Made by a program: the position numbers and the translations under genes. From Strigamia acuminata (Eukaryota), in contig OX442314.1 of NCBI GenBank assembly GCA_949358305.1, positions 6,758,001 through 6,822,000 on the forward strand: a stretch of DNA of 64,000 nucleotides. Reading direction: 5' to 3'. Each line of letters begins with the position of its first letter. Position 1 is the stretch's first letter. Shown here in pieces: positions 8,896 to 55,360 of the stretch. The notes under the pieces are model-generated. The model was given only the letters and a program-made list of their open reading frames with translations, was not told where the DNA came from and made no database searches.

Positions 8896-9368
8896 ATAAA
8901 AATAAAGGTGATCAATTAAACCAATCTTACACATTTTCACTTTGAAAGAGCGAAAATTCTTATTAAAAGTATATATTTATTACCATACGGTTTCTTAACT
9001 CATAATCTAAAATAAAAATTCGAATTCGGGGAATGCTGCGGGATTTTCACAACTGGTCAGATCCGCAACTTGTCGAATGGATTTCACGTAGGAAATCTAC
9101 TAGTCCAACTCTTTCTTTAGAATAGTTTTCAACTATTTAGCAATTTAGTCATTATCGTTTTGCGCGTGCCCCGACTTAAGATTCTGCTGTTGGCAGTGGA
9201 TCTCCAGGCTGTGGGTCTCCTAGCAGAAATTACATAACAAAATACTGGTACCTCACGTCTAAGCTGTGATATTTCAACAATTTGTAGCTACTGTTAGAGA
9301 GTTTTGTTACAATATTTAATGTGTTAGAGATTAAGTTGATTTGTGGAACGAGTTTGTTATTATTAATG

Positions 9369-10188
9369 TGTGGTGACCCAGTTGGATAGGTGTCCCCCCA
9401 GGGCGGATACTTGTCCTATGAGTCACTATGATTAAAGAGTCGTTCCCCCCCGAGTTGGCTCCACCTCCCCATGGCAGGTGTGTGCCCCGAGGGGGAGGAA
9501 GCGGCTGGTGGTCAGCCCCCATTGGTTGATCGCCGGCCCTTCACCCCACTGCATAAAAGGCTGTGTTTCCCGCCTAAAGACAGAACTTACACAAACGACA
9601 CCAAGAACACAGCAACTACCTCACCGTCAGGCCAACTTCAACTACAAGTTAGGATTGATCGAGGATCGCTGAGTAAAGTGCAAACTGTAACTCTCACGAA
9701 GTCACTTGCGAGCTATTCCTGCGAAAGCACGAGAATAGCCCTTGTGAAATCACCCAGAATAATCGCCCAGACGATTATTCGCCGAAGTAAGTGTCCGAGT
9801 GCTTTGTAGGGAACCCCAAAGTTCCTAGACGAGGCCTCTGCGACGCTAAACAAACCCTAGACAACAGGCACGGATAGAAGACTCGAAAGAGCATTCCACC
9901 GCGTCCGTGAAGACGAATCCGTGACGAATTAACGACAACTCGAGACGCCGCCTTTGTTCCGCCGACCACGCGGAATCGACGACGCCATCTTGAGAAATCC
10001 TTTGTTCGACGCTGACCACGTCGACTCTAGAATTATTACTGAGTGTATTTTAAAGGCATAAAGCCTGGTGAATAAATTACCTGTTTATTTACATACATTT
10101 GGTATTCATTTGGGTATTTACATAATTGATCACAGGTAAAGTATTACACGTTAGCGCTATTTAAACCTATACCAAGTAGGACGCGACA
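9369..10188 (+). repeat. 5' LTR of the Gypsy element
   Basis: Starts TGTGGTGACC, ends CGCGACA; same length as and apparently identical to 21418-22237 (ORF-track translations of both copies match); TATA-like GCATAAAAG at ~9551 and AATAAA at 10071. Confidence 0.96.
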
Positions 10189-10282: not shown

Positions 10283-13200
10283 ATGTCAGACAAAGACGAG
10301 CAATCCACGTCTGAAACCGAGCAGAGAATGCCCGAGAAGGGAAAAAGGACCTCCGACTACCACCTGAGATCGGATGGTCCCGTCCCTGAAATGTCCGCAA
10401 AGGCGAAAGCCCGAGCGAATAAAAGGAGAGCGAAGGCGCAGAAAGAGGAGCAAGCTGCATCGCTCGCGGCCCTAGACGGGCCAGAGCGAGAGCGGGTTCC
10501 CTTGAATATGCAACCCTTCGAAGATACCGATCCGGAAGCCATAGAAAATCGAGAAGAAATTCGCGACGTATCGCCAGGACGAGTATCGATATTGATGACC
10601 GAGGAGACGAATGAAGCTCCGAAAATAACGGTCACGATCGGCACAGACCCATCGCCACCAACGGCTCAGACGTCCGTAAAACAAACCCCACGGAAAAACG
10701 ACGGCGGGACCCCGATAACCCCCCGAGTTACGGCGAGTCCTGCAGTTGTTTCCTTCGAAGTATCTCACCTAATTCGGTTGACGCAGCAAGCTGCCCAGCT
10801 AAAAGCGATGATAGACATTCCAGTAGGAACGTCAGTCTGGGAATCGATTACCCTACTCACTGACGCTATCTGTGCGGCACAAGCCCCGACGCCGGTCGCA
10901 AGACCAGCAGCGGAGACGCCCATGCCCCAGGTAACGCCCAGTGACACCGGAGGTTTCGCGCCAGACCCCAACCGAACACTTCACGAATCCAGAGAGAAGG
11001 CCCGCGAGGAAGCCAGACAAGAAGCGACTAGTCGCCAACGAAGGCTGAGCGCAGAGCGGCGAGAACTCTGGAAGGAAGAGGAAGAAAGGGAGCAACGCGA
11101 GAGAAGAACCACCGAGAGAACAGAGAAACTGGTCCAAAAAATGAGGGAAGAACGAGAAGCTAAAATTCGAAAAGAATGGAACGCAACAGTAGAAGGGCGA
11201 CATCGAGAAGCTCAAGAGTACGAGGACCAATTTCAAGCGCTAATAGCTCAAAGAAAAACAGAAAAACTACAAATGTTGCGAAAAGAGGCCATTCTACAAC
11301 ATCAGAAATGGGAAGAACAACATCGCGAGAGGTTGAGAGAAGAGGAAGCCAGAAAAGAAAAAGAACAGTTTCTGAAAGAGAAAGAAGAGTGGGATCGAGT
11401 CAGATGGACCGAAGAGTACAAAGCGAAGAAACAAGCTATAATAGATGAGCAAAAAAGATGGGAAGCCGAAAACTGGGAGAAGGAGACAGAAAAGTTCCAG
11501 AAAGAGTACGCACAAGACGTCTCGGACAGGAAGAAAAATGAAGAAAACCTGAAACGGAAACCAGAACCCCCCAGCGGCTCTGATACCGACACAGGAGAAG
11601 GTGCAACAAAGCCGGCAAAAACGGCGAAAAGGGGGAAATCTCAAAAGAGAGACGAGTCGGTCCCAAAAACAAAGGACCGTCACCCCTCAAAAAGATCCGA
11701 GACGGGAGCAGCCATCGACGCGTTACTCGAAAAGAAAAACGCAAATAAAAATCGGGAACGCCCCGAAAGCGAGGAAAACAGATGGCATTCTTTTTACGAG
11801 AACAACGACGGAGGGGAGCCGCCGCCATCCGGAGGCTCGAAACAGAAGAAGGCTGGCGGAGAGACCCCACCGAGAGGGCCGAGGTTTCACCCCCAAGGAG
11901 ATCCCTCCGAGCCCTCCGATTCGTCGGACGACGACCATCCGAGTCGACCGTCTACAGGGAGGAGTCAAGAAGACAGCGATGGGCACCGGTCGAACCGGCC
12001 GAATGCTTCAGACCGCTCCTCCCGGAGCTCCAACCCTCGTTCGGAGGAAGGGAACTTTCAGGACTCATCTGGCCGACATTACACGATGTCTGAGCTAGGC
12101 CGAGCCCTGCTGAACTCTTTCAGAAGAGAAGGAATAGATCTAGGCCATCCAGGCGACGAACATAATCGCGCCGGAGAGAGGGTTAAGCGCAAATATGGCG
12201 TACGAAACGAACCAAGCAGCGAAGCCACGGGTAACATCCGTTGGCAACACTACATACAAACACGATTCGACGGTTCGTGGAAGGCCGGAGACCGCTTCCT
12301 AGACGAAGTAATGCGTATCAAGAAAGCGACAAAAGCCACCGTCGCCGACATGCTAACCCACGGTCTAGTGGAGCTAACCACGGGGTCAGCTCGAGAATGG
12401 TATCAGGGACTGAAAAACCCAACCTGGGACGATTTTCTCGTCCGTTTCGATCTCCGATACGGCGAGACTCCAGACGAGATCAGTAACAAATTACGTGGTC
12501 TACGGCAAGCCCCAGGAGAAACATTAGCCGACTACGACGCCCGAGCGAAACTCCTGTTTGCAAGAGCGCCGTACGAAATAAACCCCGCTGGTTTTACGAT
12601 GATCTTTTACGGAGGATTATCGGCCCACTCGCAAAGAATTCTGCTAGACATGCGTGCACCCCGCACTGGCGATTACCAAGATGTCAGTAACTATCTTCTA
12701 ACAAACACGTTAGAAATAGAACAGCGGTATTACGCCACTCTGCCCCCGGAAGAAGCTGACGCGCACGAGAAGCGGTTGCAGACGAGCGCCGAACGCCACA
12801 AGACCTCAGAAAAATTAATGAGGCCAAGTGAATATTTGAGCGGCATAATGAGTCTCACCGAAGCATCCTTCGGACGAATGCTGACGCCTAAAGCAGGCAG
12901 TATTCTTCCAGCCAACCCGATAGCTGCCCCAAAGAAAGCACCGGCAGCGACGGCGATGCAGGTGACCTCGACGGACTCCACCCAGATGGAGAAAGTCGAA
13001 GAGACAACACCTCTCGCCACGGCTAAAGAAGAGGAGCCAGCATCGAGCGACGAGGAAGCCCTAAATGAGCACCTCGAAAACTTATCGACGGGATGCGACG
13101 ATCAAGGTCCCTATTTGCACCATGCACACCGGGCCTTGGCAATCACACAATTCAGAGCACACGTGCAAGCAACAAAAGCGAGAGGAGCATTGGGAGGAAA

Positions 13201-13423
13201 AAGACGATTCCCGACGCCCTTCGTCCCGAAAAAACCGGGATTCACTCCCACAGGGGATAAAAGTAACATCAAATGTTACAGCTGTGGAGAATACGGCCAC
13301 TACTCAGATAAATGTGAGAAAACCGTCAAAGAAAAGGACATCATGCAAACCATGATGAAAATGATGATGGAGTTAAGAACTGATCTGGCAAAAAACTTCC
13401 AAGCGCAGGCGTCGCCGAAATAA
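10283..13423 (+). CDS. gag: Gag polyprotein (1046 aa) with long charged helical N-terminal half, capsid-like region and CCHC zinc knuckle
   Basis: ATG shortly after the PBS; retrotransposon gag-like segment (AREWYQGL..PTWDDFLVRF..LRQAPGETLADY); C-terminal CYSCGEYGHYSDKC = CX2CX4HX4C. Confidence 0.93.
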   Translation: MSDKDEQSTSETEQRMPEKGKRTSDYHLRSDGPVPEMSAKAKARANKRRAKAQKEEQAASLAALDGPERERVPLNMQPFEDTDPEAIENREEIRDVSPGRVSILMTEETNEAPKITVTIGTDPSPPTAQTSVKQTPRKNDGGTPITPRVTASPAVVSFEVSHLIRLTQQAAQLKAMIDIPVGTSVWESITLLTDAICAAQAPTPVARPAAETPMPQVTPSDTGGFAPDPNRTLHESREKAREEARQEATSRQRRLSAERRELWKEEEEREQRERRTTERTEKLVQKMREEREAKIRKEWNATVEGRHREAQEYEDQFQALIAQRKTEKLQMLRKEAILQHQKWEEQHRERLREEEARKEKEQFLKEKEEWDRVRWTEEYKAKKQAIIDEQKRWEAENWEKETEKFQKEYAQDVSDRKKNEENLKRKPEPPSGSDTDTGEGATKPAKTAKRGKSQKRDESVPKTKDRHPSKRSETGAAIDALLEKKNANKNRERPESEENRWHSFYENNDGGEPPPSGGSKQKKAGGETPPRGPRFHPQGDPSEPSDSSDDDHPSRPSTGRSQEDSDGHRSNRPNASDRSSRSSNPRSEEGNFQDSSGRHYTMSELGRALLNSFRREGIDLGHPGDEHNRAGERVKRKYGVRNEPSSEATGNIRWQHYIQTRFDGSWKAGDRFLDEVMRIKKATKATVADMLTHGLVELTTGSAREWYQGLKNPTWDDFLVRFDLRYGETPDEISNKLRGLRQAPGETLADYDARAKLLFARAPYEINPAGFTMIFYGGLSAHSQRILLDMRAPRTGDYQDVSNYLLTNTLEIEQRYYATLPPEEADAHEKRLQTSAERHKTSEKLMRPSEYLSGIMSLTEASFGRMLTPKAGSILPANPIAAPKKAPAATAMQVTSTDSTQMEKVEETTPLATAKEEEPASSDEEALNEHLENLSTGCDDQGPYLHHAHRALAITQFRAHVQATKARGALGGKRRFPTPFVPKKPGFTPTGDKSNIKCYSCGEYGHYSDKCEKTVKEKDIMQTMMKMMMELRTDLAKNFQAQASPK

Positions 13424-16400
13424 ATTCAGCTTCGTCTGCGCCAGCCGCGGAAATTAAAAAGAAGAAATATCACACTGGACCCGCAGGTCATGCCTTGGCA
13501 GAGGCACAGATCAAAGACCGCATACAGATCGTTCCGAAGAAGGAGGAAAAAGTGACGTTAACGAGTATGCAAGTGAGAACGAAACCGGAGGTCGACATGG
13601 ATTGGACGGACCTTCCGTTCAATCTGGAGGTTGAGCCCCAGACATTACGCGTATTTCACTGCAATGTCACGAAAGCACATTGCGAAACTCTGTGTATGCT
13701 GCCAGTGGAGATCGAAAACCAAAAATTGTTCGGTCTGCTGGATTCAGGAGCAGATCGTTCATTCATATCCGAAGATATAGTAAAGGACTTGGATATTGAA
13801 AAAAAGGTGGCACAAGTGAACGCGAACGTAGAATTGCTCACCGCCAACGGCTACGTCAAGCCGAGGGGCGTAGTTCGCATCATGATCGACTGGAAGGGGG
13901 GGAACCTGTCCCACCCCTTCATAGTCTTGCCATCCCACGACAAAGTATTCCTCTTAGGGATGGATATCATGGCAAAACTGAAAATTCAGCCAAACCCGAT
14001 AACCCGTTCATGGAACTGGATAAGTCCCGAGGGAGAACGGCCAGTCCCCGTAGTTCCCCAAAAATTACTGGACGAAGCCAAGGACAAAGAGGAATACGGA
14101 AGAGGATTGCGAAAATTCGTCCAAGATTACGATTTCGCAGCCTTCACTCTGGAATTACAGAGGAGTAACGTCGTGGACACACTGGTCGAGGAGGCAGCAC
14201 TGCGTGTTAACGAGGCATCGCTACTAAGGCGAGTGCTTCGAAAACATGAAAGAATTCTGACCAAGACACCTGGTCGAACGACGGAAGCAACCCACGAAAT
14301 AGTCTTAACCACAGACAAGCCGATTCGAGTGCCTTACAAGGGGATGAACCCCCAGAAAAGAGACATTGTGACGCAGATGTGCCAAGACATGCTCGACAAG
14401 GGCATAGTAACTCAAGCGCTGGGCGAATACGCGATGCGGATCGTCCTGGTAATGCGTCCAGGCTCGGAGCCTCGACTATGCATTGATTATCGCCCCCTGA
14501 ATGCGATAACAGTTATAGACCCGATTCAGATGCCGTCTATAGACTCGATCCTCCGGGAACTGAGCCCGTTCAAGTGGGTAACCACGATGGATCTGTCAAA
14601 GGGGTATTGGCAAGTGGAGCTAAAACCAGAAGACAAACTAAAAACGGCTTTCTACTCCCCGATAGGAAGATTAATGTTCAACGTGATGCCGTTCGGGCTT
14701 GTAAACGCCCCGAGCACGTTCCAGAAATTGATCGAAAGCGTGTTGGGAGATATGCTTCACGACTTCGTGTGGGCGTATCTCGACGACATAATAATAACGT
14801 CGGACACATTCGAAGAGCATATAGACCACATCGACAGAGTGGTCTCTCGCCTAGCCAAGGCGGGACTCCACATCCATCCAGGGAAGAGCAAGTTTTGCAG
14901 AAAAGAGCTTGCCTTCCTAGGATATCGAATAGGAGTCGAGGGAATCGCGATTGACCCCGAAAAGGTCAAAGCAATAAACGGATTCCCCGCCCCCGAAGAT
15001 ATAAAAGGTGTCCAAAGATTCATGGGCATGGTCAATTTCTTCGGCCGACTACTCTCTGGTCTGGCTGAGGTGGCCGCGCCTATAACGGATCTCTTACGAA
15101 CGGATAAAGAGTTTGAGTGGACGGTCCAGTGCGAGGCCGCATTTAGCACTATCAAGCAAATGCTGGCTGACGTCGAAAAGATGCCATTGCCGGACCTAAA
15201 CCGACCGTTCGTGTTGCACACCGACGCGAGTAAAATCGGACTGGGTGCAGCCCTTCTGCAGACCCACGTGTACAACGGAATCTCGCAAGAAGTACCCTGT
15301 ATGTTTATAAGCAGGAAAATACAGGGCGCGGAGAAAAATTACACGGCAACGGAACTAGAATGCCTAGCCGTAATTTGGGCAGTTCGAAAATTTCGCGACT
15401 ATCTGGAGTACACGAACTTCGAGGTTCAGACAGATCACCAGGCACTAAGCTGGTTGATGAAGCTCAAGGAACCTTCCGGCCGACTCGCAAGATGGCAACT
15501 GGAGTTAATGGCGTGCGATATAACAATTACGTACCGCCCCGGGAAGTACAATCATGTGGCCGACGCCCTCTCAAGAGCCCCAGCCTCTGACCCCCAGGGA
15601 CCAGACGACGACGGCGAGGACGACACCCACCTCTTGTACTGCCCAACTCCACGCAGAATATGGCGCTTACGAAAAGCAAACGAACTGCCGGTGATGGAGC
15701 CCGAAGATAGAACGTTTTGTGGTTTTTGGACTCGAACGTACCAGCCAGCTGGGACGAGCGATTCAACGTCCGCAATTCAACCTCCGCCCCCCGGAGAAAC
15801 CCACAAAACACTACTACGCGCCTTCACAGCAAAAATTGAAGAAAAAACGCAATATGCTCCACCCACGAGACGTGAGTTCGTCGAACACCAGGCAGCAGAC
15901 ACAAAATGTCAAATTATAACACAATATTTGCTGAACGGCGAATTTCCGGAAGGGATGACAAACCCACACCGCCGGAAACAGTTCGTCAAAGAAGCAACAA
16001 GCTACCTCATAGATGATGAACTCCTGGTAAAATACCACCCGACATTTCAAGATGACCTCAGTGGAGCGGGAAACTCGGTGAAAGTGGTCGTACCGGCATC
16101 ACTGCACAACCGACTGTTGTGGCTGATGCACGGACACCCGCTCGCCAGCCATTCCGGCATAGCGAGAACCCTTTATCGAGTAAAGCAACTTTTCTTCTGG
16201 CCGGGCGCGCGGCAAAAGATAACGAAATTTATCCGACACTGCCCCCGGTGCCAAGCATGCAGACCGCGAGATAAAGTAGCCAGAAACGCCATGTCTCTCG
16301 GACCCTACGCACCGTTTGACTGCTTAAGCATAGACTTGATGGGCCCCAAGCCCACAACGGGAAACAAGAACATGTATATTCTCGTAATTATGGACGTGGC

Positions 16401-17526
16401 CACCCGATGGCCGGAGCTGTACGCCCTCGCGAAGCCCTCGGCTGAAAACATAGTCGAGTGCCTTTACGACGTGGCAATGCGATTTGGGTTTCCCAGAAAA
16501 CTCATTTCGGATAACGGCCCCCAATTCCGATCAAGAATATATAAGGACTTCTGTAGGAAATTTAAAATGGATGCATCGAACACCTCCACATATAATCCTC
16601 AGACAAACCCAGTCGAGAGATTAAATAAAGATATAAAATATGCGCTGACAGTATTCACCGACATTCACAATCGATGGGACGAATACCTGCGAGAAATCGC
16701 TTTCAGCATTCGCTCAACCGTGTCAAGAACACGCGAATTCTCACCGGCGTACCTCAACTTCGCCCGCGAATTAAGGATGCCATGGGACCCACGCGTTGCC
16801 GAAGCTGTTAACGTATTAGACCCATCGAGCCCACACGAGTACGTGTGCCGGTTGGAACAGACTATATCCGACACATACCAGCATATGATGGCGCATATTT
16901 TCAACATGAGAGAAAGAATCGCAGATAAAGAAGGCGATCTCGCTTTCGCGAACTTTAAAGTGAATGATCTAGTGTGGAAGGAAGCACACACGTTGTCCAA
17001 TGCAGCGAGGGGCATCGCCGCAGGTTTAGCCGACAAGAGGGACGGTCCCTATGTAATTGTGGCCGAACACGGCGGCAACGCATACCAACTACGCCGCTTA
17101 GAGGACAACAAAAATTTTCAGTCGATACATGGCCGAGATTTAAGGCCATATCTGCCAGAGTTTCCCCAAGAAATCTGGCTGGAAGGTCAGACACACAGCG
17201 GCCAAGGGGGCACCGTGGTCGACACGTTCCAAAAAACAAATGAAGCTGAAAATATAGCGGAGGACGAGGATGAATTCTTCGACGCCGAATCTCCGGCCGA
17301 CGAGGCTCCAGCACAGCCGGAGCAAGCAATTTCGGAGAGGGAGGAAGCAGAAGAATGTACTTCTGAAATGGAAAATAAAAAAATTAATAATGAGAAAAAT
17401 GCCAACACATCGGAGATGAACGAGCAAGTAGAGTCACGATCTACGAGCACGTCGAAAATCAACCTTCGACCACGACGAAGCAATAATCCGTTCATTCGGG
17501 ACGGCAAAGTCGTGGGGAAGAACTAA
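13384..17526 (+). CDS. pol: Pol polyprotein (protease, reverse transcriptase, RNase H, integrase with GPY/F), expressed by -1 frameshift from gag
   Basis: Frame opens after TGA at 13381-13383 and overlaps gag in the -1 frame; LLDSGA (protease), YLDD (RT), LHTDAS (RNase H), H..H..CPRC plus SIDLMG/SDNGPQF/VERLN (integrase), RDGPY. Confidence 0.96.
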   Translation, partial: SGKKLPSAGVAEINSASSAPAAEIKKKKYHTGPAGHALAEAQIKDRIQIVPKKEEKVTLTSMQVRTKPEVDMDWTDLPFNLEVEPQTLRVFHCNVTKAHCETLCMLPVEIENQKLFGLLDSGADRSFISEDIVKDLDIEKKVAQVNANVELLTANGYVKPRGVVRIMIDWKGGNLSHPFIVLPSHDKVFLLGMDIMAKLKIQPNPITRSWNWISPEGERPVPVVPQKLLDEAKDKEEYGRGLRKFVQDYDFAAFTLELQRSNVVDTLVEEAALRVNEASLLRRVLRKHERILTKTPGRTTEATHEIVLTTDKPIRVPYKGMNPQKRDIVTQMCQDMLDKGIVTQALGEYAMRIVLVMRPGSEPRLCIDYRPLNAITVIDPIQMPSIDSILRELSPFKWVTTMDLSKGYWQVELKPEDKLKTAFYSPIGRLMFNVMPFGLVNAPSTFQKLIESVLGDMLHDFVWAYLDDIIITSDTFEEHIDHIDRVVSRLAKAGLHIHPGKSKFCRKELAFLGYRIGVEGIAIDPEKVKAINGFPAPEDIKGVQRFMGMVNFFGRLLSGLAEVAAPITDLLRTDKEFEWTVQCEAAFSTIKQMLADVEKMPLPDLNRPFVLHTDASKIGLGAALLQTHVYNGISQEVPCMFISRKIQGAEKNYTATELECLAVIWAVRKFRDYLEYTNFEVQTDHQALSWLMKLKEPSGRLARWQLELMACDITITYRPGKYNHVADALSRAPASDPQGPDDDGEDDTHLLYCPTPRRIWRLRKANELPVMEPEDRTFCGFWTRTYQPAGTSDSTSAIQPPPPGETHKTLLRAFTAKIEEKTQYAPPTRREFVEHQAADTKCQIITQYLLNGEFPEGMTNPHRRKQFVKEATSYLIDDELLVKYHPTFQDDLSGAGNSVKVVVPASLHNRLLWLMHGHPLASHSGIARTLYRVKQLFFWPGARQKITKFIRHCPRCQACRPRDKVARNAMSLGPYAPFDCLSIDLMGPKPTTGNKNMYILVIMDVATRWPELYALAKPSAENIVECLYDVAMRFGFPRKLISDNGPQFRSRIYKDFCRKFKMDASNTSTYNPQTNPVERLNKDIKYALTVFTDIHNRWDEYLREIAFSIRSTVSRTREFSPAYLNFARELRMPWDPRVAEAVNVLDPSSPHEYVCRLEQTISDTYQHMMAHIFNMRERIADKEGDLAFANFKVNDLVWKEAHTLSNAARGIAAGLADKRDGPYVIVAEHGGNAYQLRRLEDNKNFQSIHGRDLRPYLPEFPQEIWLEGQTHSGQGGTVVDTFQKTNEAENIAEDEDEFFDAESPADEAPAQPEQAISEREEAEECTSEMENKKINNEKNANTSEMNEQVESRSTSTSKINLRPRRSNNPFIRDGKVVGKN
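13390..13441 (+). promoter_or_regulatory. -1 programmed ribosomal frameshift signal (A AAA AAC plus downstream stem)
   Basis: Slippery heptamer at 13390-13396 in the correct gag phase (GCA AAA AAC), 6-nt spacer, stem GCGCAGGCG (13403-13411) / CGTCTGCGC (13433-13441), inside the gag/pol overlap. Confidence 0.85.
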
Positions 17527-17906
17527 AAATAAAAGAAAATGTGATAACATGGAGCGGAGGCCTTGTAAAATAAAAAGATTTACTTACGAGAGCTGCTGCA
17601 CATGTTGAAACGCGAAAATTTGGCTAAGTCCAAACTTCGCAACGAATTGTCGCAGTCACCACTAACAGACGAGAAGTTATGACGTATCGGGCGACCACGT
17701 GACAATGAAACCACGCGGTCGACCCCGTAGCGTCATTGCCAGCACGGCGGATCTCGCAAAATACGAGACGCGTTCGAGACCCACAATTCTCAGCGTCGAT
17801 AGGCCCAGTTTCCGACTGTTTTTAACACGACGAGACGTGTTTTTGCTTCTCCCCCAAAGAGAAAGACAAAGACCTCTCAAACAAAACTTCATTTTCCTAA
17901 ATTGAA

Positions 17907-18023
17907 ATGGCCGATCGACGCAACCCACGATTAGAGCCGAGCGCATCGTCGAGAGACGAGAGCGACGGCCTAATCGTAAATGCAGAAGACGATGAGAATT
18001 GGGACGAACAACCGCCGTTGCAG
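17907..18023 (+). CDS. Putative first coding exon of ORF3 (MADRRNPRLEPSASSRDESDGLIVNAEDDENWDEQPPLQ)
   Basis: ATG in strong context (GAAATGG); 39 codons ending CAG|GTAAAT, a phase-0 donor that joins in frame to the 18584 acceptor, giving ~967 aa. Confidence 0.55.
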
Positions 18024-18583
18024 GTAAATTAGTGTGATTTCCCCAGAGAAATCACATAATTCTTTGAATCTGTTGCATCCAACCCAGATTGGAGCGTGAC
18101 TTGTGACTGATATATTTCTTTCTGTTTTATTATTGATTTAAGGCTGGCTAAAAACCCGAGAGTGGACCCAGATTCACCTCGGAGTCAAGGCCGCCAAAAA
18201 ACTAGAACAAAGGAAGTGTTCGCGGAATGGCGTCGTGGCAAACCAAAACCAAAACTAAAGGTTTTCTTTCTTTTAAAATTAAACATCGTAATAAATTAAA
18301 ATACGATTAGAGTTAAAATAAAAAGTTTAACGTAATATTAAGAATTTAACGATCGGTTTTGCCTGCGACCCCTTCCTAAAAAGCGGATCACCTGAGTTCA
18401 AAGGTAGTGTTGGATCAGCGCTACGACGGCGGAGATCATCGCAGAACTGCGAAACAAGAAAATAAGACCGACGGCCGCAACAAAAGAAAGGAGTTGCTGC
18501 CACCGTCGATCTTGAGCATATTTCTGATCCCCATCGTTAAACTGGGATTTATTATATTAATCTTGTGATCTAAAATTATTCAG

Positions 18584-21370
18584 GTCGACCCGCTAGAATC
18601 GTGGGACGCCCTGCCTTCGACGGTGTCAACCGCCAACAACATCTTTCGCGGAGCCCTGCCGATTTACCTGCGGCAGGCCTATCCTGCAGAGACCAGCGCC
18701 TGGAAAATCCGATTGATGTACTCCAGGACCCTCGAGGAAAAATTCGAGCGATCGAAAACGCTGGTCGAGTGCATGACGAAGGAGATGAGGGAGCGAGTGG
18801 GGCCGCGGATCCCACCCGATGCGGATCCGCCGAGCCCCGTTTACTCCGGGTACCTGGAAGAGGCTTACCCAGGCACGGTGGCCGAGCTGCACACCTCCCA
18901 CAGGTGGAGCGAGGCCCCGACCTTGGCAGCCCGCCAGAAAATAGTGGACGACGAGATCGAACGCTTAAAGCGCACCGAGACTCACGGAGTAACCCGAGTT
19001 CTCGAGAGAAACGGTTTCTCCCCCGAAGAAATCCGTAGATGGCTTCGCGACATCGAAGAAGACCATTTGACACCCAGATGGATACCACCGGCGAATTTTA
19101 CGGCCACGCAGTCTGAGATGTGGCAGTTATACCACGCTGGTATCCTGGGAAGTCGCCGCCATCACAGAAGATCGAAGCGTCCGGCGGAGTCCGCCCCACG
19201 CGGACCCGCACGAAGAAGACAGGCCGTCTCCCCAACAGAGGCCGGCCCGTCAACGAGTCGCGACTACCGCAGCCGCTCGAGCAGCTCCAGTTCCCGAACT
19301 CGAGTTGTCGTGCGCTCGGAGTGTCGCCGAGTAGTAACGCTCGAGCCTGCCTCGCCAGACGACGCGCGGGCTGAGCGAACGGTCGAATCTTCCGCCCACT
19401 GGGCTGCGAGGACCGAGACACACCAAGATCGAGGAAAGAAAAGATCCTCGTTGTTTATGGCGATTACCACACAGTCGTCAGATCAATCCTCGTCGCGACG
19501 AACCGTCTCAACACACCAGAGACCGGATTCCCCGACGGACGTCCCCCAGAGGACGGTCCAACAAAGATCCGTCGCAGCCAACACCAGGAGGAATCGGAAG
19601 CGTAAAGTACGACAGAAGACGCGTGCGCGGTCTCTGATCGCGAAAGGATTGGAGAAAGAGCGAGAGATGGCCGCCGCAAAAAGGTCCGAACCCCGAAGTC
19701 TCGGATCCGCGGCTGGGCCGTCCAGGCTCCAGGCAGAGATTGATTTGGGAGAATTGACGGAAGAACAAATATCCCAAGAAGAGTCGGACAAGGATGGACC
19801 GGTCACGAAACAAGATCTGGCCATGGCATTGAAGAACGCCTTCCGAGGATACGCGGCCAACCGGCCGTCGGGCTCAACACCGGCTGTGCCCACCGCGCTT
19901 GTGCCCCCACAGGTGCAATCGCGATGGCCGCCACTCCTCGAGGGTACAAACCCAGCAGTGACCACGTGGACCCCTCCCCGGATGATTCCGGTGGGAGATC
20001 CAACTCCCAAACGGGTCAGATACGACGACCTACCAGGGATGGGCCGTCCACCGTCACCCCCGACGCCACGAGTGTACCATCCTCATCGCAACGCCGAGTG
20101 GTACGCGCAGCGGGGGATGGACGCCAGATGCCGGCGTGAAGCGGCCTATCCCTCACTCAGCGAGTTACAAGAATATCTGGCCGAATACGAGAACCCCGCG
20201 ATTGCCGAGTTGGCCATACGACAGGCCGACGCCGCCCAAACTCACCACATCAACTGGGCGATCGAACAGATGCGGACGTTGTCACAGCAATTCAGTGACA
20301 ATCCGGACCGCGCTCACCCCTGCCATCGGAGCAGTTTGAATTTGGCTGTGACGAACGTACTGGCCCAGCTGCTATCCCTGGGCGTCTTCTTGGACAGTCG
20401 GCAAGCTATGGCGGCCTGGACAATCGTCGACCGTGAGGGAGTTCACCTTCCTCGGGCGTTGTACCAGGTATGGGCCGGATGGACTCCTGAGCCCGCCTCG
20501 CTGCGCTTCGACCTGGCCAGAAATACGGAAAACCCAGGCCTACAGTTTTCAAAGATGCGTTCGTTAGCATTCCGCTACCGGAACCCCGGAGTCCACCCTT
20601 CCTTGTTGCGAACAATTCGGGAGGTTCCGGAGATACCGGGAACGGCGGCGAGCCTTCCACAGGCCATCGAGACCGCCCCCCCAGAGGCGGCGGTCCAACC
20701 ATACATACCGACCCCAAAGCCGGTATTCCCGAAGGAGAAGCGACACGCGAATCGACCCATATTGATTCCGAAGCGTTCCAAGCGAGGACCCCGAACTCCT
20801 CCGCTGCCCTCTCCTTCACCACCAGCGGCAGGGCTGGCCGCTCTCTCTGCAGAGCCGGCTACGCCACCGTTGGAGAGCCCAATGGAGATTCCGCTCCCAC
20901 CATCGCCTCCGCCGCCCCCAGCAGCGCAGCTTTATTTGAGGCTGGGAGTGGAATACCCCTTCCTTCAGATGTCGGAGTTCACGCGACAACGCATCATTGA
21001 CTCCGACGATCACGGCGAATCAATCCTCAAATGGCTAAACAGAGAAGCCCGATCCACCATGGACGCCGTCTTCCATCGCCGTATCCTACGGGCCCACAGG
21101 AAACCCGGATCGAGCGCCGAGTCGCGAAGGATCCGACTCGTCCCCGATCGATTCCCCGCGTCTACCCGGATTTGGATCCATGAGCGTACGGGGTTGGTTG
21201 GCGAGCCAGCCGGCAGTCACCCGCAGTACTTCATCAACGAGCGACAAAATCCTGCGGATCTGACAACCTCTCTGCCCCCGGATTTACCACCGCCGCCACC
21301 GGCAGTGCCACCCGTGATCCTCCGCCCATGCAGAGGAGTGCTGCCGGCTCTTCGCAGAGGAGAGCGATGA
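18584..21370 (+). CDS. ORF3 main exon: large Arg/Ser/Pro-rich accessory protein of unknown function, not Env-like
   Basis: Stop-free frame from 18569 to TGA at 21370; the ORF track starts it at a GTG (18623); TTATTCAG acceptor at 18583 is in phase 0; no signal peptide or TM helix visible; basic clusters (RRHHRRSKR, RRNRKRKVRQK). Confidence 0.85.
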   Translation, partial: VDPLESWDALPSTVSTANNIFRGALPIYLRQAYPAETSAWKIRLMYSRTLEEKFERSKTLVECMTKEMRERVGPRIPPDADPPSPVYSGYLEEAYPGTVAELHTSHRWSEAPTLAARQKIVDDEIERLKRTETHGVTRVLERNGFSPEEIRRWLRDIEEDHLTPRWIPPANFTATQSEMWQLYHAGILGSRRHHRRSKRPAESAPRGPARRRQAVSPTEAGPSTSRDYRSRSSSSSSRTRVVVRSECRRVVTLEPASPDDARAERTVESSAHWAARTETHQDRGKKRSSLFMAITTQSSDQSSSRRTVSTHQRPDSPTDVPQRTVQQRSVAANTRRNRKRKVRQKTRARSLIAKGLEKEREMAAAKRSEPRSLGSAAGPSRLQAEIDLGELTEEQISQEESDKDGPVTKQDLAMALKNAFRGYAANRPSGSTPAVPTALVPPQVQSRWPPLLEGTNPAVTTWTPPRMIPVGDPTPKRVRYDDLPGMGRPPSPPTPRVYHPHRNAEWYAQRGMDARCRREAAYPSLSELQEYLAEYENPAIAELAIRQADAAQTHHINWAIEQMRTLSQQFSDNPDRAHPCHRSSLNLAVTNVLAQLLSLGVFLDSRQAMAAWTIVDREGVHLPRALYQVWAGWTPEPASLRFDLARNTENPGLQFSKMRSLAFRYRNPGVHPSLLRTIREVPEIPGTAASLPQAIETAPPEAAVQPYIPTPKPVFPKEKRHANRPILIPKRSKRGPRTPPLPSPSPPAAGLAALSAEPATPPLESPMEIPLPPSPPPPPAAQLYLRLGVEYPFLQMSEFTRQRIIDSDDHGESILKWLNREARSTMDAVFHRRILRAHRKPGSSAESRRIRLVPDRFPASTRIWIHERTGLVGEPAGSHPQYFINERQNPADLTTSLPPDLPPPPPAVPPVILRPCRGVLPALRRGER

Positions 21371-21417: not shown

Positions 21418-22237
21418 TGTGGTGACCCAGTTGGATAGGTGTCCCCCCAGGGCGGATACTTGTCCTATGAGTCACTATGATTAAAGAGTCGTTCCCCCCC
21501 GAGTTGGCTCCACCTCCCCATGGCAGGTGTGTGCCCCGAGGGGGAGGAAGCGGCTGGTGGTCAGCCCCCATTGGTTGATCGCCGGCCCTTCACCCCACTG
21601 CATAAAAGGCTGTGTTTCCCGCCTAAAGACAGAACTTACACAAACGACACCAAGAACACAGCAACTACCTCACCGTCAGGCCAACTTCAACTACAAGTTA
21701 GGATTGATCGAGGATCGCTGAGTAAAGTGCAAACTGTAACTCTCACGAAGTCACTTGCGAGCTATTCCTGCGAAAGCACGAGAATAGCCCTTGTGAAATC
21801 ACCCAGAATAATCGCCCAGACGATTATTCGCCGAAGTAAGTGTCCGAGTGCTTTGTAGGGAACCCCAAAGTTCCTAGACGAGGCCTCTGCGACGCTAAAC
21901 AAACCCTAGACAACAGGCACGGATAGAAGACTCGAAAGAGCATTCCACCGCGTCCGTGAAGACGAATCCGTGACGAATTAACGACAACTCGAGACGCCGC
22001 CTTTGTTCCGCCGACCACGCGGAATCGACGACGCCATCTTGAGAAATCCTTTGTTCGACGCTGACCACGTCGACTCTAGAATTATTACTGAGTGTATTTT
22101 AAAGGCATAAAGCCTGGTGAATAAATTACCTGTTTATTTACATACATTTGGTATTCATTTGGGTATTTACATAATTGATCACAGGTAAAGTATTACACGT
22201 TAGCGCTATTTAAACCTATACCAAGTAGGACGCGACA
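21418..22237 (+). repeat. 3' LTR of the Gypsy element
   Basis: Direct repeat of 9369-10188 at offset 12049; preceded by a purine tract and followed by the AATG TSD. Confidence 0.96.
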
Positions 22238-22532
22238 AATGTTGAGTTGAATTGCATTGTGGGATTGATGATTGCATAAAGCGGGCACGAATGAGCTTTT
22301 AGAAGGAAAATAGACTTTTATCTGAGCTACAAAAGTTAGTAGAAGAAGGAGAAGAAAGTGCATCAAGCAGCAGTGAGGAAGAGAGCACATCAAGCAGCAG
22401 TGATAATAGAAAAAGCAAAACGAATAGCAGTGAGGAAACCACATCAGGCAGTAGTAGCGATTACGACCACAAGATGGCGCCACAAACGACAACAGAGGAG
22501 GAATTCCAGCACTCACCCACAACAACTTTGCT

Positions 22533-24763
22533 ATGTGGGCGTGCAGATTGGAGGACAGATTAAGAGGCAAAAAATTATGGAAAAGTGTAATATTGGAGGG
22601 CGAACCACCTAAAAGCCAGGTGAAAGGAGATGATGCTGACAAGAAGTGGAATGAATATGATGACAAAAATGCCAAAGCCAAGATGATAATGATTGACAAT
22701 ATGTGTGAATCCAAGCAAATGATCAACATGCATGAGCGCAGTGCAAAAACATTGTGGCAACAAATAGAAACAGACATGCAGAGCACCGCTGAGAGAACCA
22801 AACTAGAGGCACACCATGAAGTCACACACATAACAATGCAGAAAAATGAAACCATTGATGAGTATTGCAACAGAGCGCAGGGACTCAGACAGTGCTTTTT
22901 GCAAGCTGGGGGAAAGATGGAGGAAACCGAATTGATTTTCCACATCAAAAATGGATTAAGAAGGTAATTTCAAAATGCAAAGGAAGCATTAAATTTCCAA
23001 ACTGGCATAAAAATGGCCGATTTGAGAAGCTGACTAAAGCTGTGCAAAGGAGAAAAACAAAATAACGAAAAAAAAACCACAGAGAACATACAAAAAGCCA
23101 GAGAGAACAGAAATATAATTTGCTATAATTGCTCAGGCAGGGGCCATTACAAAAGAGATTGTCGCAGCAAGCAAAAATGTTATAATTGCGGACGCCCAGG
23201 GCATTTGATAGCAGACTGCAAAGATGAGCAAAAACCGGAAAGTGACAGCAACAGAGGTCGTGGCAGAGGAAAAGGAAACTTTGGAAACCGAGGAAGAGGA
23301 AGAAGGCAGAAACAAAACGTGATGACAGCTGTTGAGAAGCCAAACAAGCATATTTGTGAAGAAATAGCTGAAACAATATGGAAAACTGAATTTAAGAGAA
23401 ACAAAGATGACGACCTGATCCCACATGAAACTTTAGTTGCAACAGGGCGAAAAATTAAGATATGCAACTGTATGGAAAATGATAAAGAATTGAAAGTAGA
23501 AAGATCTATGATGGTTGCATTTGCAGCAAAACACGGAAAACTCGTACGATTACACAACGTAAAAACAGCGTATTTGAACGCAAAATTTAAGGAAAAAATA
23601 TGGATGTAACAACCCGATGTATTCAAGGAAAAAGGGAGAGAAGATGAAGTTTGCTATTTGATACGAAGCGTATATGGACTAAAACAAAGTGGACGGACTT
23701 AGAATGAGCTGATTGACCAAATATTGAAATCAATGAGACTAAAGCAATCCAAGGATGATGATTGATGAATGCTTGTATTATATATTCATTGAAGTAGATT
23801 ATATGATAATTGGATTACACGTGGATGACATGTTATCAGTGGCTAGCAACATAACATTTGAAAACAAGATTTTGGAAAAACTAAGAAAAGCAGTAAATCT
23901 AGTTACCCTAGGAGACGCAAAGACTGTTTTAGGAATGCAACTAGAACAAACAGAAGGAAAAAAATTTTGTGCATCAGAAAGCTTACGTACAGAAATTACT
24001 GGAAATGTACAGCCTAGACAAATGCAACGGCGCAAAGTCACCGGGAGAACCAAACCAAAACATTGACAAATGCCAAGAAAGCAAAAAAACGGATAGGAAA
24101 ATGCATCAAGAACTGTTAGGAAGATTACTATACTTGGCAACACACACCAGATCAGACCTAAGTTTCACGTTTGGAAATTTATCGCGTTACAACCAAGAAC
24201 CGAGAGAGATACATCTGGAAGGATTAAAAAGAGTTCTACGTTATCTCAAATGAACTGAAAATTATGGCATCACGTACGGAAGCGAAAGGAAAACATTAGA
24301 AGTATTTACTGATGCTAGCTGGGATAGAACGTTGGACAGCAAATCATTTTCAGGATTATTAGTTTTATATGGTAAAGATTTAATACATTGGAAATCAAAG
24401 AAGCAGAAATTCGTAGCACAATCAACGAACGAAAGCGAATTGGAAGCATTTCATGAAGGCATCAAAGAACTGATCTGCCACAGAGATTTAATTGAGGATT
24501 TGAATAAAGAAGATTTGCAGAGAAAAGGAAAAATTTATTGTGACAGTTTGAATGTGATAACACTAATGACTAAAGGGACGCACAAGATGCAAACAAAATT
24601 TTTAAATAGAAGAGTTAATTTGGCTAAAGACCTGATTACAAGTCAAGAAGTGGAAGTCGAACATATTCCAGGAAAAGAGCAATTAGCGGATTTCTTAACC
24701 AAGAATTTATCCGGAGTGAAGATCAAAGAAGTTATGAACATTTTAATGAACAGTAGTGTTTGA
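22533..24763 (+). pseudogene. Copia gag-pol remnant (gag, two zinc knuckles, RT, RNase H; protease/integrase apparently deleted)
   Basis: Gag-like 22533-22967; [14 protein letters not shown] and [14 protein letters not shown] at ~23120-23220; Copia RT motifs [23 protein letters not shown]; RNase H FTDASW and QLADFLTK; multiple stops and frameshifts. Confidence 0.88.
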
Positions 24764-24819
24764 ATTATTGAAAGTGTTGTTTTAAGTGTTTGAATAATTA
24801 TAATAACAAGAGGGGGATT

Positions 24820-25053
24820 TGTTAGAGAGTTTTGTTACAATAATTAATGTGTTAGAGATTAAGTTGATTTGTGGAACAAGTTTGTTATTATTAATGTTGA
24901 GTTGAATTGCATTGTGGGATTGTTAGAACTTGATGATTGTTGGTGAAAATCAGTGCAAGCGCTTGTGTGTAATTTGGAACCATTTGGACAATATACCAGT
25001 TTGTTTGTTTATCAAAATGCGGATGTGTGGACATTTATTTAAGAAAACTAACA
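24820..25053 (+). repeat. 3' LTR of the Copia element (234 bp)
   Basis: TGTTAG...CTAACA terminal inverted repeat; matches 9292-9368 plus 22238-22274; shows the uninterrupted site TTAATGTTGAG. Confidence 0.85.
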
Positions 25054-27229: not shown

Positions 27230-28199
27230 CTTCAGTATTATTGATTTGGAATAGTCGGCTCGGCCAATGGGAGAAGGCCACTTATTTGAGTTGAACAAGA
27301 GTATAGTTGTTGCATATCGTATGCGCCATTTGTACTACATAATTTGAATAATACATACCTTATCATTGTACAGTGGGTTGCTATGAGATCGTCCTCTAGC
27401 AACCCACTCCATTCTTCTACAATAAACAATTAGTCGACTCACAAAATCAATCCGAACAGTCAAGTCCTTCTTTACTGGCCAGTAGGCCCAAACGAAGATG
27501 TTCTATGACGACCAGAACCCCACAATGGCCCGAATCCAAATCCAATAGACTCATCACTACTATGTTACGTCTATCAATAGGTTTATTTCTACGATTTACA
27601 CAATACTACAAATTGTGTATTTCAGGTGCACAACTAAGGTATTTTTCTCTTCAAGTTCTTGAGATGTGCTCTGCTGGGATCCGAGGCCATTCCCAGCAGA
27701 GGCACTTCAGAAATGAAGAGAGAAAGTGCATGTGAAAGGTTGATATTAGATACTAAAACAGTTGTGATAAAAGTAATGTTTTGAATGAAAAATTTTACAT
27801 TTTACATTTATATACAAACAAGATTAAATAAAATTAATTAATTCAGTGAAAATCACTTTTTGAATGTAACTGGTGTGTTAATGTTCTTTCAGATGTTAAA
27901 TGTTAATGATACTCAACTAGTGTATTTGTGTATTTAAGAACGCGAAAAAAAAGTCTGCATTGATGTGTATTGCCATATACATTTTATTGGAAGCAAATTT
28001 TCTAATGCAGAATGAGAACCAAGAATAATGCACAGGCACAATGTGAGGACTTTTAGCGTTACTCAGGCATAATGTGAGAACCGTACACAGAACACCACAA
28101 TTGTGCTACTAAATCTACCACAGAATACCAAAATTGTGGTTCTAAATCTGCCACAGAACAGGAAATCTTTATGATAAAGAGAGGGGACTCATTTTTGTA

Positions 28200-29764
28200 A
28201 GGTGCGCGCCATAAGTATGGAATAATCAGTTTTTTTATAATATTTTTTTTTACGCTTCATCTAGAATCAAACCAATTTTTTAATCCATGTATTTTATCTT
28301 TTGAATTCGTTTAAAATCAACAAGTTTATAATTTTTCTAGAAAAATAAATTTGGCAGTGATTTTACACAAAAATGGGGGTGACATAAGTATGGAATATTT
28401 CAGGTTTGATGCAAAAAAATGAATAAAATTAATGTCACCTAACATGCCTTTGTCTGATTAGTTAATCAGTGAATATGTCATCAATTTTCTGCCATTTTTA
28501 AATTGTATTACTTGCTATTTTCTTATTTTGAAGCCATCCCTTATACAAAACTTGCAACCACTGTGGAAATCGCTGAAATAAAGCGATTAAAGTCACTGGG
28601 CCTCTCCAAACAGCAAATCCATAGAAGATCAGGAAGAAATTAATCAATTATATCAAAAGCCCTAACCCAAAGATGAAAATCAAATATGGAAGCAAGACGG
28701 GGAGGATCAAAAGTGACCATGCAGCAAGTTGACAGGAATATTTTGTGCCTGGCACTGACTCTGCTGTTGTCTGCAAATGAAATTTGCACACATGTAGATG
28801 TAATTGTATCTTTAGCAAACAATTCAAAGCAGACTAAACAATTGTGATCACCTCTGTTATAAAAAATAGCTGTACAACTGTGGTTAACTGAAGTCCATAA
28901 ATTGAAGTGCTCTGATTAGACTAATACCAAGCTGCCCTGGACCAAATCATGAAACTGGGTGCTTTTTACAGACAAAATACAGTTCAACTTAGATGGTCTG
29001 GATGGTTAGTGTAATAAATGGCAAGATTTAAGGAGAGAAGAGAAGTTTTCTCAATGGGCAGAATCAAGTGATGGTTTGGGTGACATTCGGGCGAAAAATA
29101 CAGGCAATCATCATAATAATGAAAGGATGGAAAGATTCACAGAAGTATAAGGAAGTGTTGAACATGCATTTATTGCCATTTGGATGGAAAATTGTGGCAA
29201 TAAATGGGTGTTTCAGCAAGACAATGCTCACTGCATGGTCACTTTTGGTCTTCCCTGTCTGCTTTCACATTTGGATTTCATGTTTTGGTTAGAATTTTTT
29301 ATGCAATTGACTAATTTCTTTCAATTTCTTCCTAATCTTCTATCAATTTGTTGTTTGGCGAGCCCCAGTGCCTTTAATCGCTTTATTTCAGCGATTTCCA
29401 CAGTGGTTGCAAGTTTTGTACAAGGGATGGCTTCAAAATAAGAAAATAGCAAGTAATACAATTCAAAAATGGCAGAAAATTGATGACATATTCACTGATT
29501 AACTAATCAGACAAAGGCATGTTATGTGATATTAATTTTATTTATTTTTTTGCATCAAACCTGAAATATTCCATACTTATGTCACCCCCATTTTTGTGTA
29601 AAATCACTGCCAAATTTATTTTTCTAGAAAAATTATATACTTGTTAATTTTAAACGAATTCAAAGGACAAAATACATGGATTAAAAAATTGGTTTGATTC
29701 TAGATGAAGCGTAAAAAAAAATATTACAAAAAAACTGATGATTCCATACTTATGGCGCGCACCT
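28200..29764 (+). mobile_element. Defective Tc1/mariner (Tc3-like) element with ~525-bp inverted arms
   Basis: TA-flanked termini AGGTGCGCGCCATAAGTATGG / CCATACTTATGGCGCGCACCT; internal fragments WVLFTD..FNLDG.DG, VMVW, WVFQQDNA with stops. Confidence 0.85.
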
Positions 29765-29889
29765 TATCTCAATTTATTTTTTGAGATTGCAAATGTAGTT
29801 AAAATAATAATATCGCATTTGCCCTCACAATTCATGCTGGTTGCTTGCAATTGGCTGCCAGATAGGTTTTTTTTAATGAATTATTACTT

Positions 29890-33508: not shown

Positions 33509-53979
<20,471 letters not shown>

Positions 53980-54862
53980 CGTGCAGGCACAATGAGCAAC
54001 GGTGTGTTTCTCAACCGCTTTCTCATCCAACCTCTTTCACTCCTCTGCTCCCTGGCTGGGCTGGCGGTGATGGCGCCACGAAGCATGTTTGGTTCCGGTG
54101 TTGGGTCATGTGACGGATAGCCTCGAACGGTGCGGAAATAACCTCGAATGTGAAATTTAATTAATTAATGGTTTTAGTGGTTCTGAAATGGAATAAAATG
54201 TATTTTAAATTAATGTTTGTTTAAGGGAATCCGAGGGAATCGGTTTGGTTAATTCGGAATATGATTTTCAATGTGAGTTTTGAAGGCAGTGATACGCATA
54301 AATGAACTGGAATTTGAAAACAACCTGCTCAATAAATTAATTAATTGAATTAATTGAATTAATGAATGTATAATAAATTTTATATTTTATTTCGCAGGTT
54401 GTTTTTATATTCCAGTTCATTTAAATCGATTCAGTTAATTTTAAATCAAATAAATTTGAAACAGAAATTTTATATGTAATTCACAACTGAACTGGAAAAA
54501 TAATAAGTTCGTGTAACTGAAAAAGAAAATTTAAAAAATGAAATAAAATGCTTCGAATGATTCGGAAAATATCTTTAAAATTCAAAAAATTATAATAATT
54601 TAATTTAATATGAATTTTCTACAACTTTTGATTTTAAAAAGCGGACACAACCGAACTGGAAAATCACTACACAGATTTCGAGATTTAAAATCCCGATCAA
54701 AACGACATAACAAACACAAAAAAAAAATATTCAAACAAAAAAACAACCGAAATAAACAAATAAAAACAAACAAAACCTCAATTCAAAACCCGGAAACAAA
54801 AAATTAAAAAACTAATAATTAATTCAACAAGGATAAATCCATGACGTAATTTTCTCGTCAAC

Positions 54863-55360
54863 ATGGCGCCCGCAACCCCGAACGATTCCGTGTCCAAACC
54901 CGACGGTCCGCTTGCCCCGATCCAAGTCGAACCCAACGTGCGGCTTTCCCACGAGCAATCGTCCGGCTGGCTCTACAAAAAAGCCCGCTTCTCCCAAAAA
55001 TGGAGGCGGCAGTGGTTCCTAGTTGACAGGAACGTCCTCAGATATGGCAACTCGGAAAAGGTGAAACACATCTATAAAAAAAAAAACGGAATTTTTGTCG
55101 ACAAAAGTGAAAAATTGCATATTTTTGCACGAATTTTGCAGGAAAACGGCAAGAAAATAGTGCTGGAAGGCGCCAGGATCCTGGAATCAAACATGGACAA
55201 TAAAATGCACGCGTTTTCGGTGCAACCACGAGCGGGCAAACGAATTTACTACCTGCAAGCCGATGACGAAATCAGCAGGAATAAGTGGATGCAGACCATT
55301 TGTTTCGCGAAGATGGTGAACGGGATCGAAGAGAAAGGAAGCGCGTGTGCGATTTTGTAA
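54863..55360 (+). CDS. Small PH-domain protein with C-terminal CaaX motif (two exons, ~138 aa)
   Basis: SGWLYKK..WRRQWF..L.Y..HAFSV..RIYYLQAD..RNKWMQTI is a PH fold; intron 55061-55141 (AAG|GTGAAA...TTTTGCAG|G); ends CAIL-stop. Confidence 0.85.
   Translation: MAPATPNDSVSKPDGPLAPIQVEPNVRLSHEQSSGWLYKKARFSQKWRRQWFLVDRNVLRYGNSEKVKHIYKKKNGIFVDKSEKLHIFARILQENGKKIVLEGARILESNMDNKMHAFSVQPRAGKRIYYLQADDEISRNKWMQTICFAKMVNGIEEKGSACAIL

Follow-up and report, generated by a model that had tools for sequence, protein, structure and literature searches.

Introduction

The Ty3/gypsy element Cer1 of C. elegans, in which no stop separates gag and pol, encodes CERV, a nuclear protein of 517 aa that is assembled from five exons, with the N-terminal exons taken from the gag region, and that is needed for export of the genomic RNA (PMC10309623). 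In Drosophila errantiviruses, the env-F genes of the ZAM, Beagle, springer and idefix subclades take their start from a short upstream coding exon, which lies upstream of or within gag and is followed by a single intron spanning gag-pol; the product is an F-type envelope (PMC12992720). Here, we analyzed a stretch of 64,000 nucleotides (nt) of Strigamia acuminata (contig OX442314.1, positions 6,758,001 to 6,822,000 of the forward strand; "the window"), which contains a Ty3/gypsy retrotransposon with a third long open reading frame (ORF3) downstream of pol. ORF3 is likely a split gene, in which a 39-codon exon carrying the ATG would be spliced in frame to the long second exon to give a 967-residue protein.

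CERV is a spliced non-env product of a post-pol ORF, and for ORF3 the splice is predicted from DNA. In the window, the predicted start exon follows pol, its protein would have 967 aa, and pol is in the -1 frame. Export function has been shown for CERV only, and ORF3 is likened to it by analogy; no sequence link between the two turned up in the ORF3 homology searches, in which the CERV sequence itself was not compared directly. Exons shared with gag, as in CERV, are conceivable, since the window gag has donors, yet these do not give the best model. As in errantivirus env, the main exon of the third ORF would get its start from a short upstream exon, but in the window this exon follows pol and the product lacks envelope features. 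The preliminary description of this DNA had regarded two coding exons as typical of complex retroviruses; they do not serve as such a mark, being also found in insect errantivirus env (PMC12992720) and the five-exon CERV (PMC10309623). Split coding exons in insect env genes and CERV are already known.

Like Rev, Rex and Rec, ORF3 would be a regulator made from multiply spliced RNA; it has basic clusters, and RNA that retains the intron would keep a structured element. Those proteins are small, whereas ORF3 is far larger (967 aa) and has no Pfam REV match, and the window structure is an array of small hairpins with the same loop, which are predicted sites only. The combination of small size, an Arg-rich RNA-binding motif and an export signal was not found in ORF3. 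Non-env additional ORFs of LTR (long terminal repeat) retrotransposons include the DEDDy/GDSL ORF3s of bdelloids (PMC5408684) and the aORFs of plants (PMC7264820); the available parts of these sources mention no start exon after pol that is followed by an internal intron, and the window ORF3, unlike them, has no known domain. FAST-like fusogens of the sORF2 type have 60-210 aa and one membrane span (bioRxiv 2025.03.14.642691), from which ORF3 differs in length and hydropathy; in the spacer, the small ORFs were inspected only visually. A survey of env genes makes no mention of splicing in its available part (PMC13524379). In the open-access literature, no invertebrate Ty3/gypsy element was found that has a start exon after pol on the sense strand and an intron bearing an array of hairpins, in a search that did not cover Repbase reports and supplements.

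Results

Predicted exons and splice sites of ORF3

The predicted gene consists of the following parts (positions are those of the window).

17907..18023, forward strand: predicted coding exon 1 of ORF3; ATG with G at -3 and +4, 39 codons, acidic, phase-0 end
18024..18583, forward strand: predicted GT-AG intron; 560 nt, both junctions phase 0
18584..21370, forward strand: predicted coding exon 2 of ORF3; 928 codons
17836..17859, forward strand: candidate acceptor of a first intron from the LTR; pyrimidine tract and AAG

The preliminary description had placed the ATG at 17907-17909, followed by 39 codons up to CAG/GTAAAT, and had placed the acceptor AG, ending at 18583, after the in-frame stop at 18566-18568. 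Coordinates and phase were checked and are correct, as are the near-start GTG at 18623 and the product length of about 967 aa (39 + 928 codons = 967 aa). In the long ORF, no in-frame ATG precedes the one at 18716. Read unspliced, exon 1 meets a stop two codons past the donor. The donor at 18024 matches MAG/GTRAGT at 8 of 9 positions and is the sole 8/9 donor between the LTRs. The probability of such an exon arising by chance was estimated using 2000 dinucleotide shuffles of the pol-ORF3 spacer, together with block shuffles. An ATG exon of at least 20 codons with a phase-0 end at an 8/9 donor occurred in 1.6% of shuffles (1.75% of block shuffles), and the rate rose to 9.5% (10.7% of block shuffles) with a 7/9 donor and to 34% with a 6/9 donor; the significance of the mini-exon therefore varies with donor strictness.

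The acceptor at 18583 is one of two interior YAG sites that passed a post-hoc rule (AG-free, with 9 or more T upstream), and by eye it is similar in style to the AT-rich acceptors of host genes in the window. When any NAG was allowed, 5 plus-strand sites in the interior passed, 3 of them in the spacer (17859, 18142 and 18583), versus 44 minus-strand sites. This excess arises because the plus strand is A-rich, and it makes the rule weak on its own. GC content stepped from 0.30 to 0.60 at the ATG and was 0.56 in exon 1; it was 0.22 over the final 45 nt of the intron, then 0.61 past the acceptor. The stretch between candidate acceptor 17859 and the start codon (17860-17906) is free of ATG.

A second AG at 18142, which had been pointed out before, exists, but joining it to the phase-0 donor gives a stop at the third codon. 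The additional or alternative exons suggested within the intron found no support; the GC-richer blocks fold as RNA structure. As a duplicate alternative exon, 18143-18260 was rejected: its weak peptide likeness (shuffle p 0.024) was equalled by 8 of 611 other windows of sequence, DNA likeness was absent, and its donor scored only 5/9. The 18023-18584 joint was not among the joints listed (15 of 25) in two DNA runs, DNA being uninformative on splicing.

Conservation ahead of the first ATG of exon 2

A full HMMER search of 1.84 billion representatives returned a single homolog of ORF3, the metagenome protein P0126 (525 aa, E 2e-7). P0126 aligned to exon-2 residues 6-108 (pairwise E 8e-13) and 524-644 (E 1e-6), that is, to both helical domains. 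The score of exon-2 residues 1-44, which precede the first ATG, against P0126 was attained in 0 of 5000 shuffles, while residues 1-13, which precede the GTG, were not above shuffles when taken alone (2365 of 5000). Since residues 1-44 are conserved in P0126, translation begins upstream of the ATG at 18716, and a splice or a GTG start is therefore needed. Initiation at a downstream ATG, named beforehand as an outcome that would speak against the split gene, is now unlikely, given the 44 conserved codons. The Met of P0126 lies 48 residues ahead of the match, and that of the spliced ORF3 model 43.

The mini-exon layout in related elements

The closest pol sequences, none of which exceeded about 45% identity, were aligned and led to 78 metagenome loci. 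In a quick tree of reverse transcriptase (RT) and RNase H, the window element grouped with 19 loci and P0016 with an SH-aLRT (Shimodaira-Hasegawa-like approximate likelihood-ratio test) value of 96, or 93 in a smaller tree. The region after pol was scanned in 18 loci, 10 of which have at least 1 kb there; L006 was excluded, as its contig ends inside pol. All 10 carry another ORF after pol, and three of them (L002, L009 and L011) share the layout of the window, with a 28-codon ATG exon, a phase-0 intron and an ATG-less ORF. Their 28-codon exons differ strongly in sequence. Each has an AG/GTA donor in phase 0, an AT-rich intron (181, 184 or 454 nt, 21-24% GC) and a phase-0 acceptor, after which an ORF of 163-322 codons has its first Met at codon 59-69. 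The exon-2 products are Cys- and His-rich and homologous to one another (E 1e-74 to 8e-18). The intronless ORF3 of L005 showed weak homology to them (E 5e-4) and has an N-terminus of similar length; by eye, L002 and L011 have an apparent second intron in common. The mini-exon layout is thus real in this element group.

These Cys/His-rich ORF3s form an unnamed family (L002:4089-4960, L009:3420-4926 and L011:3389-4703, with intronless homologs in L005 and L010). The L010 and L011 contigs each seem to contain their element in head-to-tail tandem copies. At L018:5235-6809 and L027:7970-9409, a fourth ORF encodes a 3'-5' exonuclease domain (Pfam E 9e-25 for L018); these ORFs resemble the DEDDy ORF3s of rotifer elements.

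Variation among family copies

In two DNA runs of one study, coverage of the element was high and even and variants were numerous, which is the pattern that DNA of a multi-copy family would give. The variants of these copies were used for comparison, with 12 of 19 indels and 40 of 286 differences listed. None of the 11 listed indels of 1-2 nt falls within gag, pol, exon 1 or exon 2, parts that account for 84% of the stretch compared; three are just before the ATG at 17907 and two, of 1 nt each, are in the intron. The twelfth listed indel, of 3 nt, is at the ORF3 stop. The nominal P for this placement was 1.5e-9 overall and 0.001 after pol, values that are overstated because homopolymer runs favour indels in AT-rich DNA. 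The synonymous share among the listed differences was 13 of 13 in pol, 6 of 13 in ORF3 and 4 of 10 in gag, with 21-31% expected. Exon 1 has one listed difference, an amino-acid change at a third position, and the ATG, GT and AG are untouched among the 40 listed.

Two small ORFs of 26 and 66 codons lie downstream of pol in 17602-17905. The second, at 17705, begins with what we take to be an AT-hook-like motif and is disrupted by the three listed indels before the ATG.

CCCAGA hairpins in the intron and elsewhere

The intron (18024..18583) folded to -152 kcal/mol, compared with a shuffle mean of -121.8 kcal/mol (z -5.0), and 0 of 100 shuffles were as low. It contains part of a set of predicted hairpins with the same hexaloop.

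18032..18181, forward strand: three CCCAGA-hexaloop hairpins directly after the donor, loops at 18042, 18083 and 18167
12981, 16492 and 19545, and 20680 with a bulge, forward strand: CCCAGA hairpins outside the intron
9757..9780, forward strand: CCCAGA hairpin with a 9-bp stem; second copy in the 3' LTR, loop at 21815

The hairpins are placed in the LTR, gag, integrase, intron (three) and ORF3. The LTR hairpin lies 21 nt before the donor at 9787 and ends close to it, and the gag hairpin lies 19 nt after the donor candidate at 12962. The hexaloop was first spotted by eye and then tested without naming the loop. Among 190 hairpin loops in the element, CCCAGA occurred 7 times and every other loop at most twice; the most repeated hexaloop occurred at most twice in 100 shuffles and once on the antisense strand. 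Of 12 sense CCCAGA sites, 7 cap a stem of at least 5 bp, versus 0.6% of all sites. The raw count of 12 is not enriched (shuffle mean 6.5, maximum 17); only the hairpin context is. The loop formed in 8 of 9 fragments folded singly. The data showed that the repetition of the CCCAGA hairpin is non-random.

The introns of L002, L009 and L011 likewise fold strongly (z -6.8 to -7.5), and they hold 1, 1 and 3 copies of another stem-loop, which recurs after ORF3 in L009 and L011. Two Rfam rows for the window intron (E 0.16 and 0.48) were treated as chance, and there was no convincing Rfam match. Elsewhere in the element, stable folding was predicted for the segments at 17469 and 17769 (z about -4), and the strongest local RNA structure is at 14769-14918, inside the RT gene (z -6.8; 150-nt scan, 25 shuffles).

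Sequence features of the ORF3 protein

In the exon-2 product, two helical domains are predicted at low confidence, near residues 5-185 and 500-680; both are common to P0126, and there are Arg/Ser-rich and Pro-rich linkers. The protein has 12% Arg and 12% Pro, and basic clusters lie at about exon-2 residues 192-213 and 335-349. The ORF3 sequence shows neither a signal peptide nor a clear membrane span, and it lacks a cysteine scaffold. The highest 19-residue hydropathy was 1.75, within a predicted helical domain, and the protein has 5 Cys and 1 sequon, with an acidic exon 1. ORF3 is not an envelope: it differs from errantivirus env because it has no Pfam hit, low hydropathy, few Cys and no fold match.

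No Pfam family, REV included, matched ORF3, and a word-indexed protein search and the PDB sequences gave nothing. The ESM Atlas held nothing for ORF3 or P0126; viral contigs queried with pol or P0126, and metagenome contigs queried with pol alone, also yielded nothing for ORF3. A two-sequence profile of ORF3 and P0126 returned only P0126. Foldseek gave no match at E 0.001 with models of low confidence (mean predicted local distance difference test 41.5 and 50.8). Pfam also gave a REV row at the N-terminus of gag (E 0.14), which was put down to chance.

The retrotransposon and its surroundings

The element with ORF3 is young and intact; its 820-bp LTRs (9369-10188 and 21418-22237) have zero mismatches between them. 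As a Ty3/gypsy retrotransposon it has two LTRs, a target duplication, a primer site (presumably for tRNA-Pro) and a purine tract, and gag is followed by protease, RT, RNase H and integrase, which is the Ty3/gypsy domain order (Pfam).

9369..10188, forward strand: 5' LTR, TG...CA, identical to the 3' LTR
9365-9368 and 22238-22241: 4-bp target duplication
9552, forward strand: TATA-like site within the 5' LTR
10071, forward strand: AATAAA within the 5' LTR
9787, 10068 and 10136, forward strand: donor candidates of the 5' LTR
10283..13423, forward strand: gag, with Retrotrans_gag and a CCHC knuckle
10931 and 12962, forward strand: in-frame phase-0 donor candidates in gag, each 7/9
13390-13396, forward strand: slippery A-AAA-AAC within gag
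13384..17526, forward strand: pol, -1 frame; protease, RT, RNase H, integrase
18569-21370, forward strand: third long frame (ORF3)
21418..22237, forward strand: 3' LTR, preceded by the purine tract

The sequence from 9560 to the gag start is free of ATG. The LTR poly(A) signal at 10071 overlaps one donor-like site and is 65 nt upstream of another (10068-10140), an arrangement that could keep the 5' LTR from being used for polyadenylation. Ahead of its capsid region, gag carries an N-terminal extension of unusual length (10283-12080, ~600 aa), which is disordered with coiled-coil and has an Arg-rich stretch close to its start.

The retrotransposon is inserted within an LTR of an older copia-like element that is itself broken (9292-9368 and 22238-24900); this older element retains gag, CCHC knuckle and RNase H remnants, with a second LTR copy near 24820. 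Long inverted repeats at 28198-29766, 33729-34766, 37421-37814 and 40761-42090 are probably foldback or MITE-type (miniature inverted-repeat transposable element) DNA elements, and the window also contains several tandem arrays of 20-55 nt. Host genes in the window, as those of an animal, contain introns. One is a small PH-domain gene with a single short intron (54845-55360, forward strand), and another encodes a membrane protein (58563-62552, reverse strand; Pfam MMPL E 2e-4), which we take to be Dispatched-like.

Discussion

With a little better than even confidence, we read ORF3 as a two-coding-exon, non-envelope accessory gene whose intron hairpins would tag unspliced genomic RNA for binding by a protein. 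Two splices probably produce the ORF3 mRNA, one from an LTR donor to 17860 and then one from 18023 to 18584; together they would remove gag and pol along with four to six of the seven hairpins, the number varying with the LTR donor. Translation of the doubly spliced RNA would start at 17907, because both the LTR leader up to gag and 17860-17906 are free of ATG. The genomic RNA would keep gag, pol and the intron hairpin cluster, all lost from the doubly spliced RNA, and the hairpins, as predicted binding sites, would single out the unspliced form. The reader of these sites may be ORF3, a basic and probably nuclear protein, which would then permit export of intron-retaining RNA like Cer1 CERV or HIV Rev; this suggestion, made by analogy, is tentative, and Gag as a reader that serves packaging is about as likely. 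That the element must both splice and retain this intron had been taken earlier to imply regulated splicing or export. That need is common to any retroelement with a spliced gene and on its own does not point to regulation; the hairpin array is a better hint of it.

Several observations weigh against this interpretation. Exon 1 has no match in P0126 in the alignment, seven of the 10 relatives whose sequence continues for at least 1 kb past pol have an ORF3 that opens with an ATG within about 270 nt of the pol stop and have no mini-exon, and constraint on ORF3 is weak among the listed differences, since 6 of 13 are synonymous, with 25-31% expected, compared with all 13 in pol. The ORF3s of L002, L009 and L011 have no detectable homology to that of the window, so the shared layout may reflect convergence rather than inheritance. 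The RT grouping of the relatives with the window is loose, coming from quick trees with a long branch, and in the integrase tree the window falls with P0016 and the L013-L027 group, not with L002, L009 and L011. No CCCAGA hairpins were found in the 16 relatives checked. Hairpins also occur in gag, pol, ORF3 and the LTR, a spread just as compatible with dispersed packaging signals, and those of the LTR and exon 2 would persist in spliced RNA. No family (Pfam) or fold (Foldseek) points to RNA binding by ORF3. For the split gene itself, which we hold to be likely, the homolog, the placement of the indels and the matching layout of three relatives all add support, and the splice remains a deduction from genomic DNA.

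Other explanations keep the splice and change its meaning or its partners. The hairpins may be dispersed Gag packaging or dimerisation signals or sites for host factors, with ORF3 countering silencing or acting on chromatin. Their spread over the LTR, gag, pol, intron and ORF3, the lack of an RNA-binding family or fold match for ORF3, and the exchange of unrelated ORF3s among relatives, including an exonuclease gene in L018, all suit this possibility, which we hold to be a real but minor one; the clustering of 3 of 7 hairpins right after the ORF3 donor suits control of splicing or export, yet also selective packaging, and two further hairpins lie about 20 nt from the donor candidates at 9787 and 12962. 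It is unlikely that the ORF3 mRNA comes from an internal promoter after pol, with the 560-nt intron still spliced, rather than from a first splice out of the LTR. A CCCTATAAAAGGG box is common to L002, L007 and L011; in L002 and L011 it sits some 150-170 nt ahead of the ATG of the mini-exon, but no comparable TATA box was seen by eye before 17907 in the window, where an acceptor-like site is present at 17859, and L002 and L011 also have a pyrimidine tract and AG before their ATG.

Joining of the 18583 acceptor mainly to a gag donor (10931 or 12962), which would give a Gag-leader/ORF3 fusion with the mini-exon as a minor form, seems very unlikely, even with precedents in CERV (PMC10309623) and idefix-type env (PMC12992720). 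Both gag donors score 7/9 in phase 0, and one has a CCCAGA hairpin 19 nt downstream, but Gln-Val codon pairs yield such donors by chance in coding DNA, whereas the donor at 18024 is stronger and has its own ATG, an upstream acceptor and a layout matched in three relatives; the leader length of P0126 fits about 40-50 residues, not 216 or 893. Slightly less probable again is the simplest retroviral scheme, in which an LTR donor is spliced straight to 18584, translation starts at the ATG at 18716 or the GTG at 18623, and the upstream exon is a product of chance. No other ATG is present in the LTR leader or in 18584-18715, and such exons appear in 10-34% of shuffles at a lax donor rule; on the other side stand the conservation in P0126 of residues before 18716 and the T at -3 of that ATG. 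Only the rarity of GTG starts in animals excludes a start at this codon, because the 13 residues before it are not above shuffles.

If the two-exon gene with its intron hairpins is as we propose, small start exons matter for annotation, and post-pol retrotransposon ORFs can be mis-annotated when such an exon is overlooked. Little is known beyond a few models of how intron-containing genomic RNA of retrotransposons is exported and encapsidated, and CERV is the one element-encoded solution described in the available parts of the literature examined (PMC10309623). The element supplies a candidate protein together with a sharply defined candidate RNA site (one hexaloop, seven times), which makes the question of how genomic RNA leaves the nucleus and enters capsids directly testable. 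A further and rather doubtful suggestion is that an invertebrate Ty3/gypsy lineage evolved a switch like that of complex retroviruses independently of HIV Rev and Cer1 CERV, in which a protein made from doubly spliced RNA would read an array of identical-loop hairpins clustered in its own intron, thereby licensing genomic RNA that is unspliced, and that a sister lineage (L002, L009 and L011) reached the same design with another protein and hairpin. The finding points to a Ty3/gypsy group with diverse, unnamed non-env third genes.

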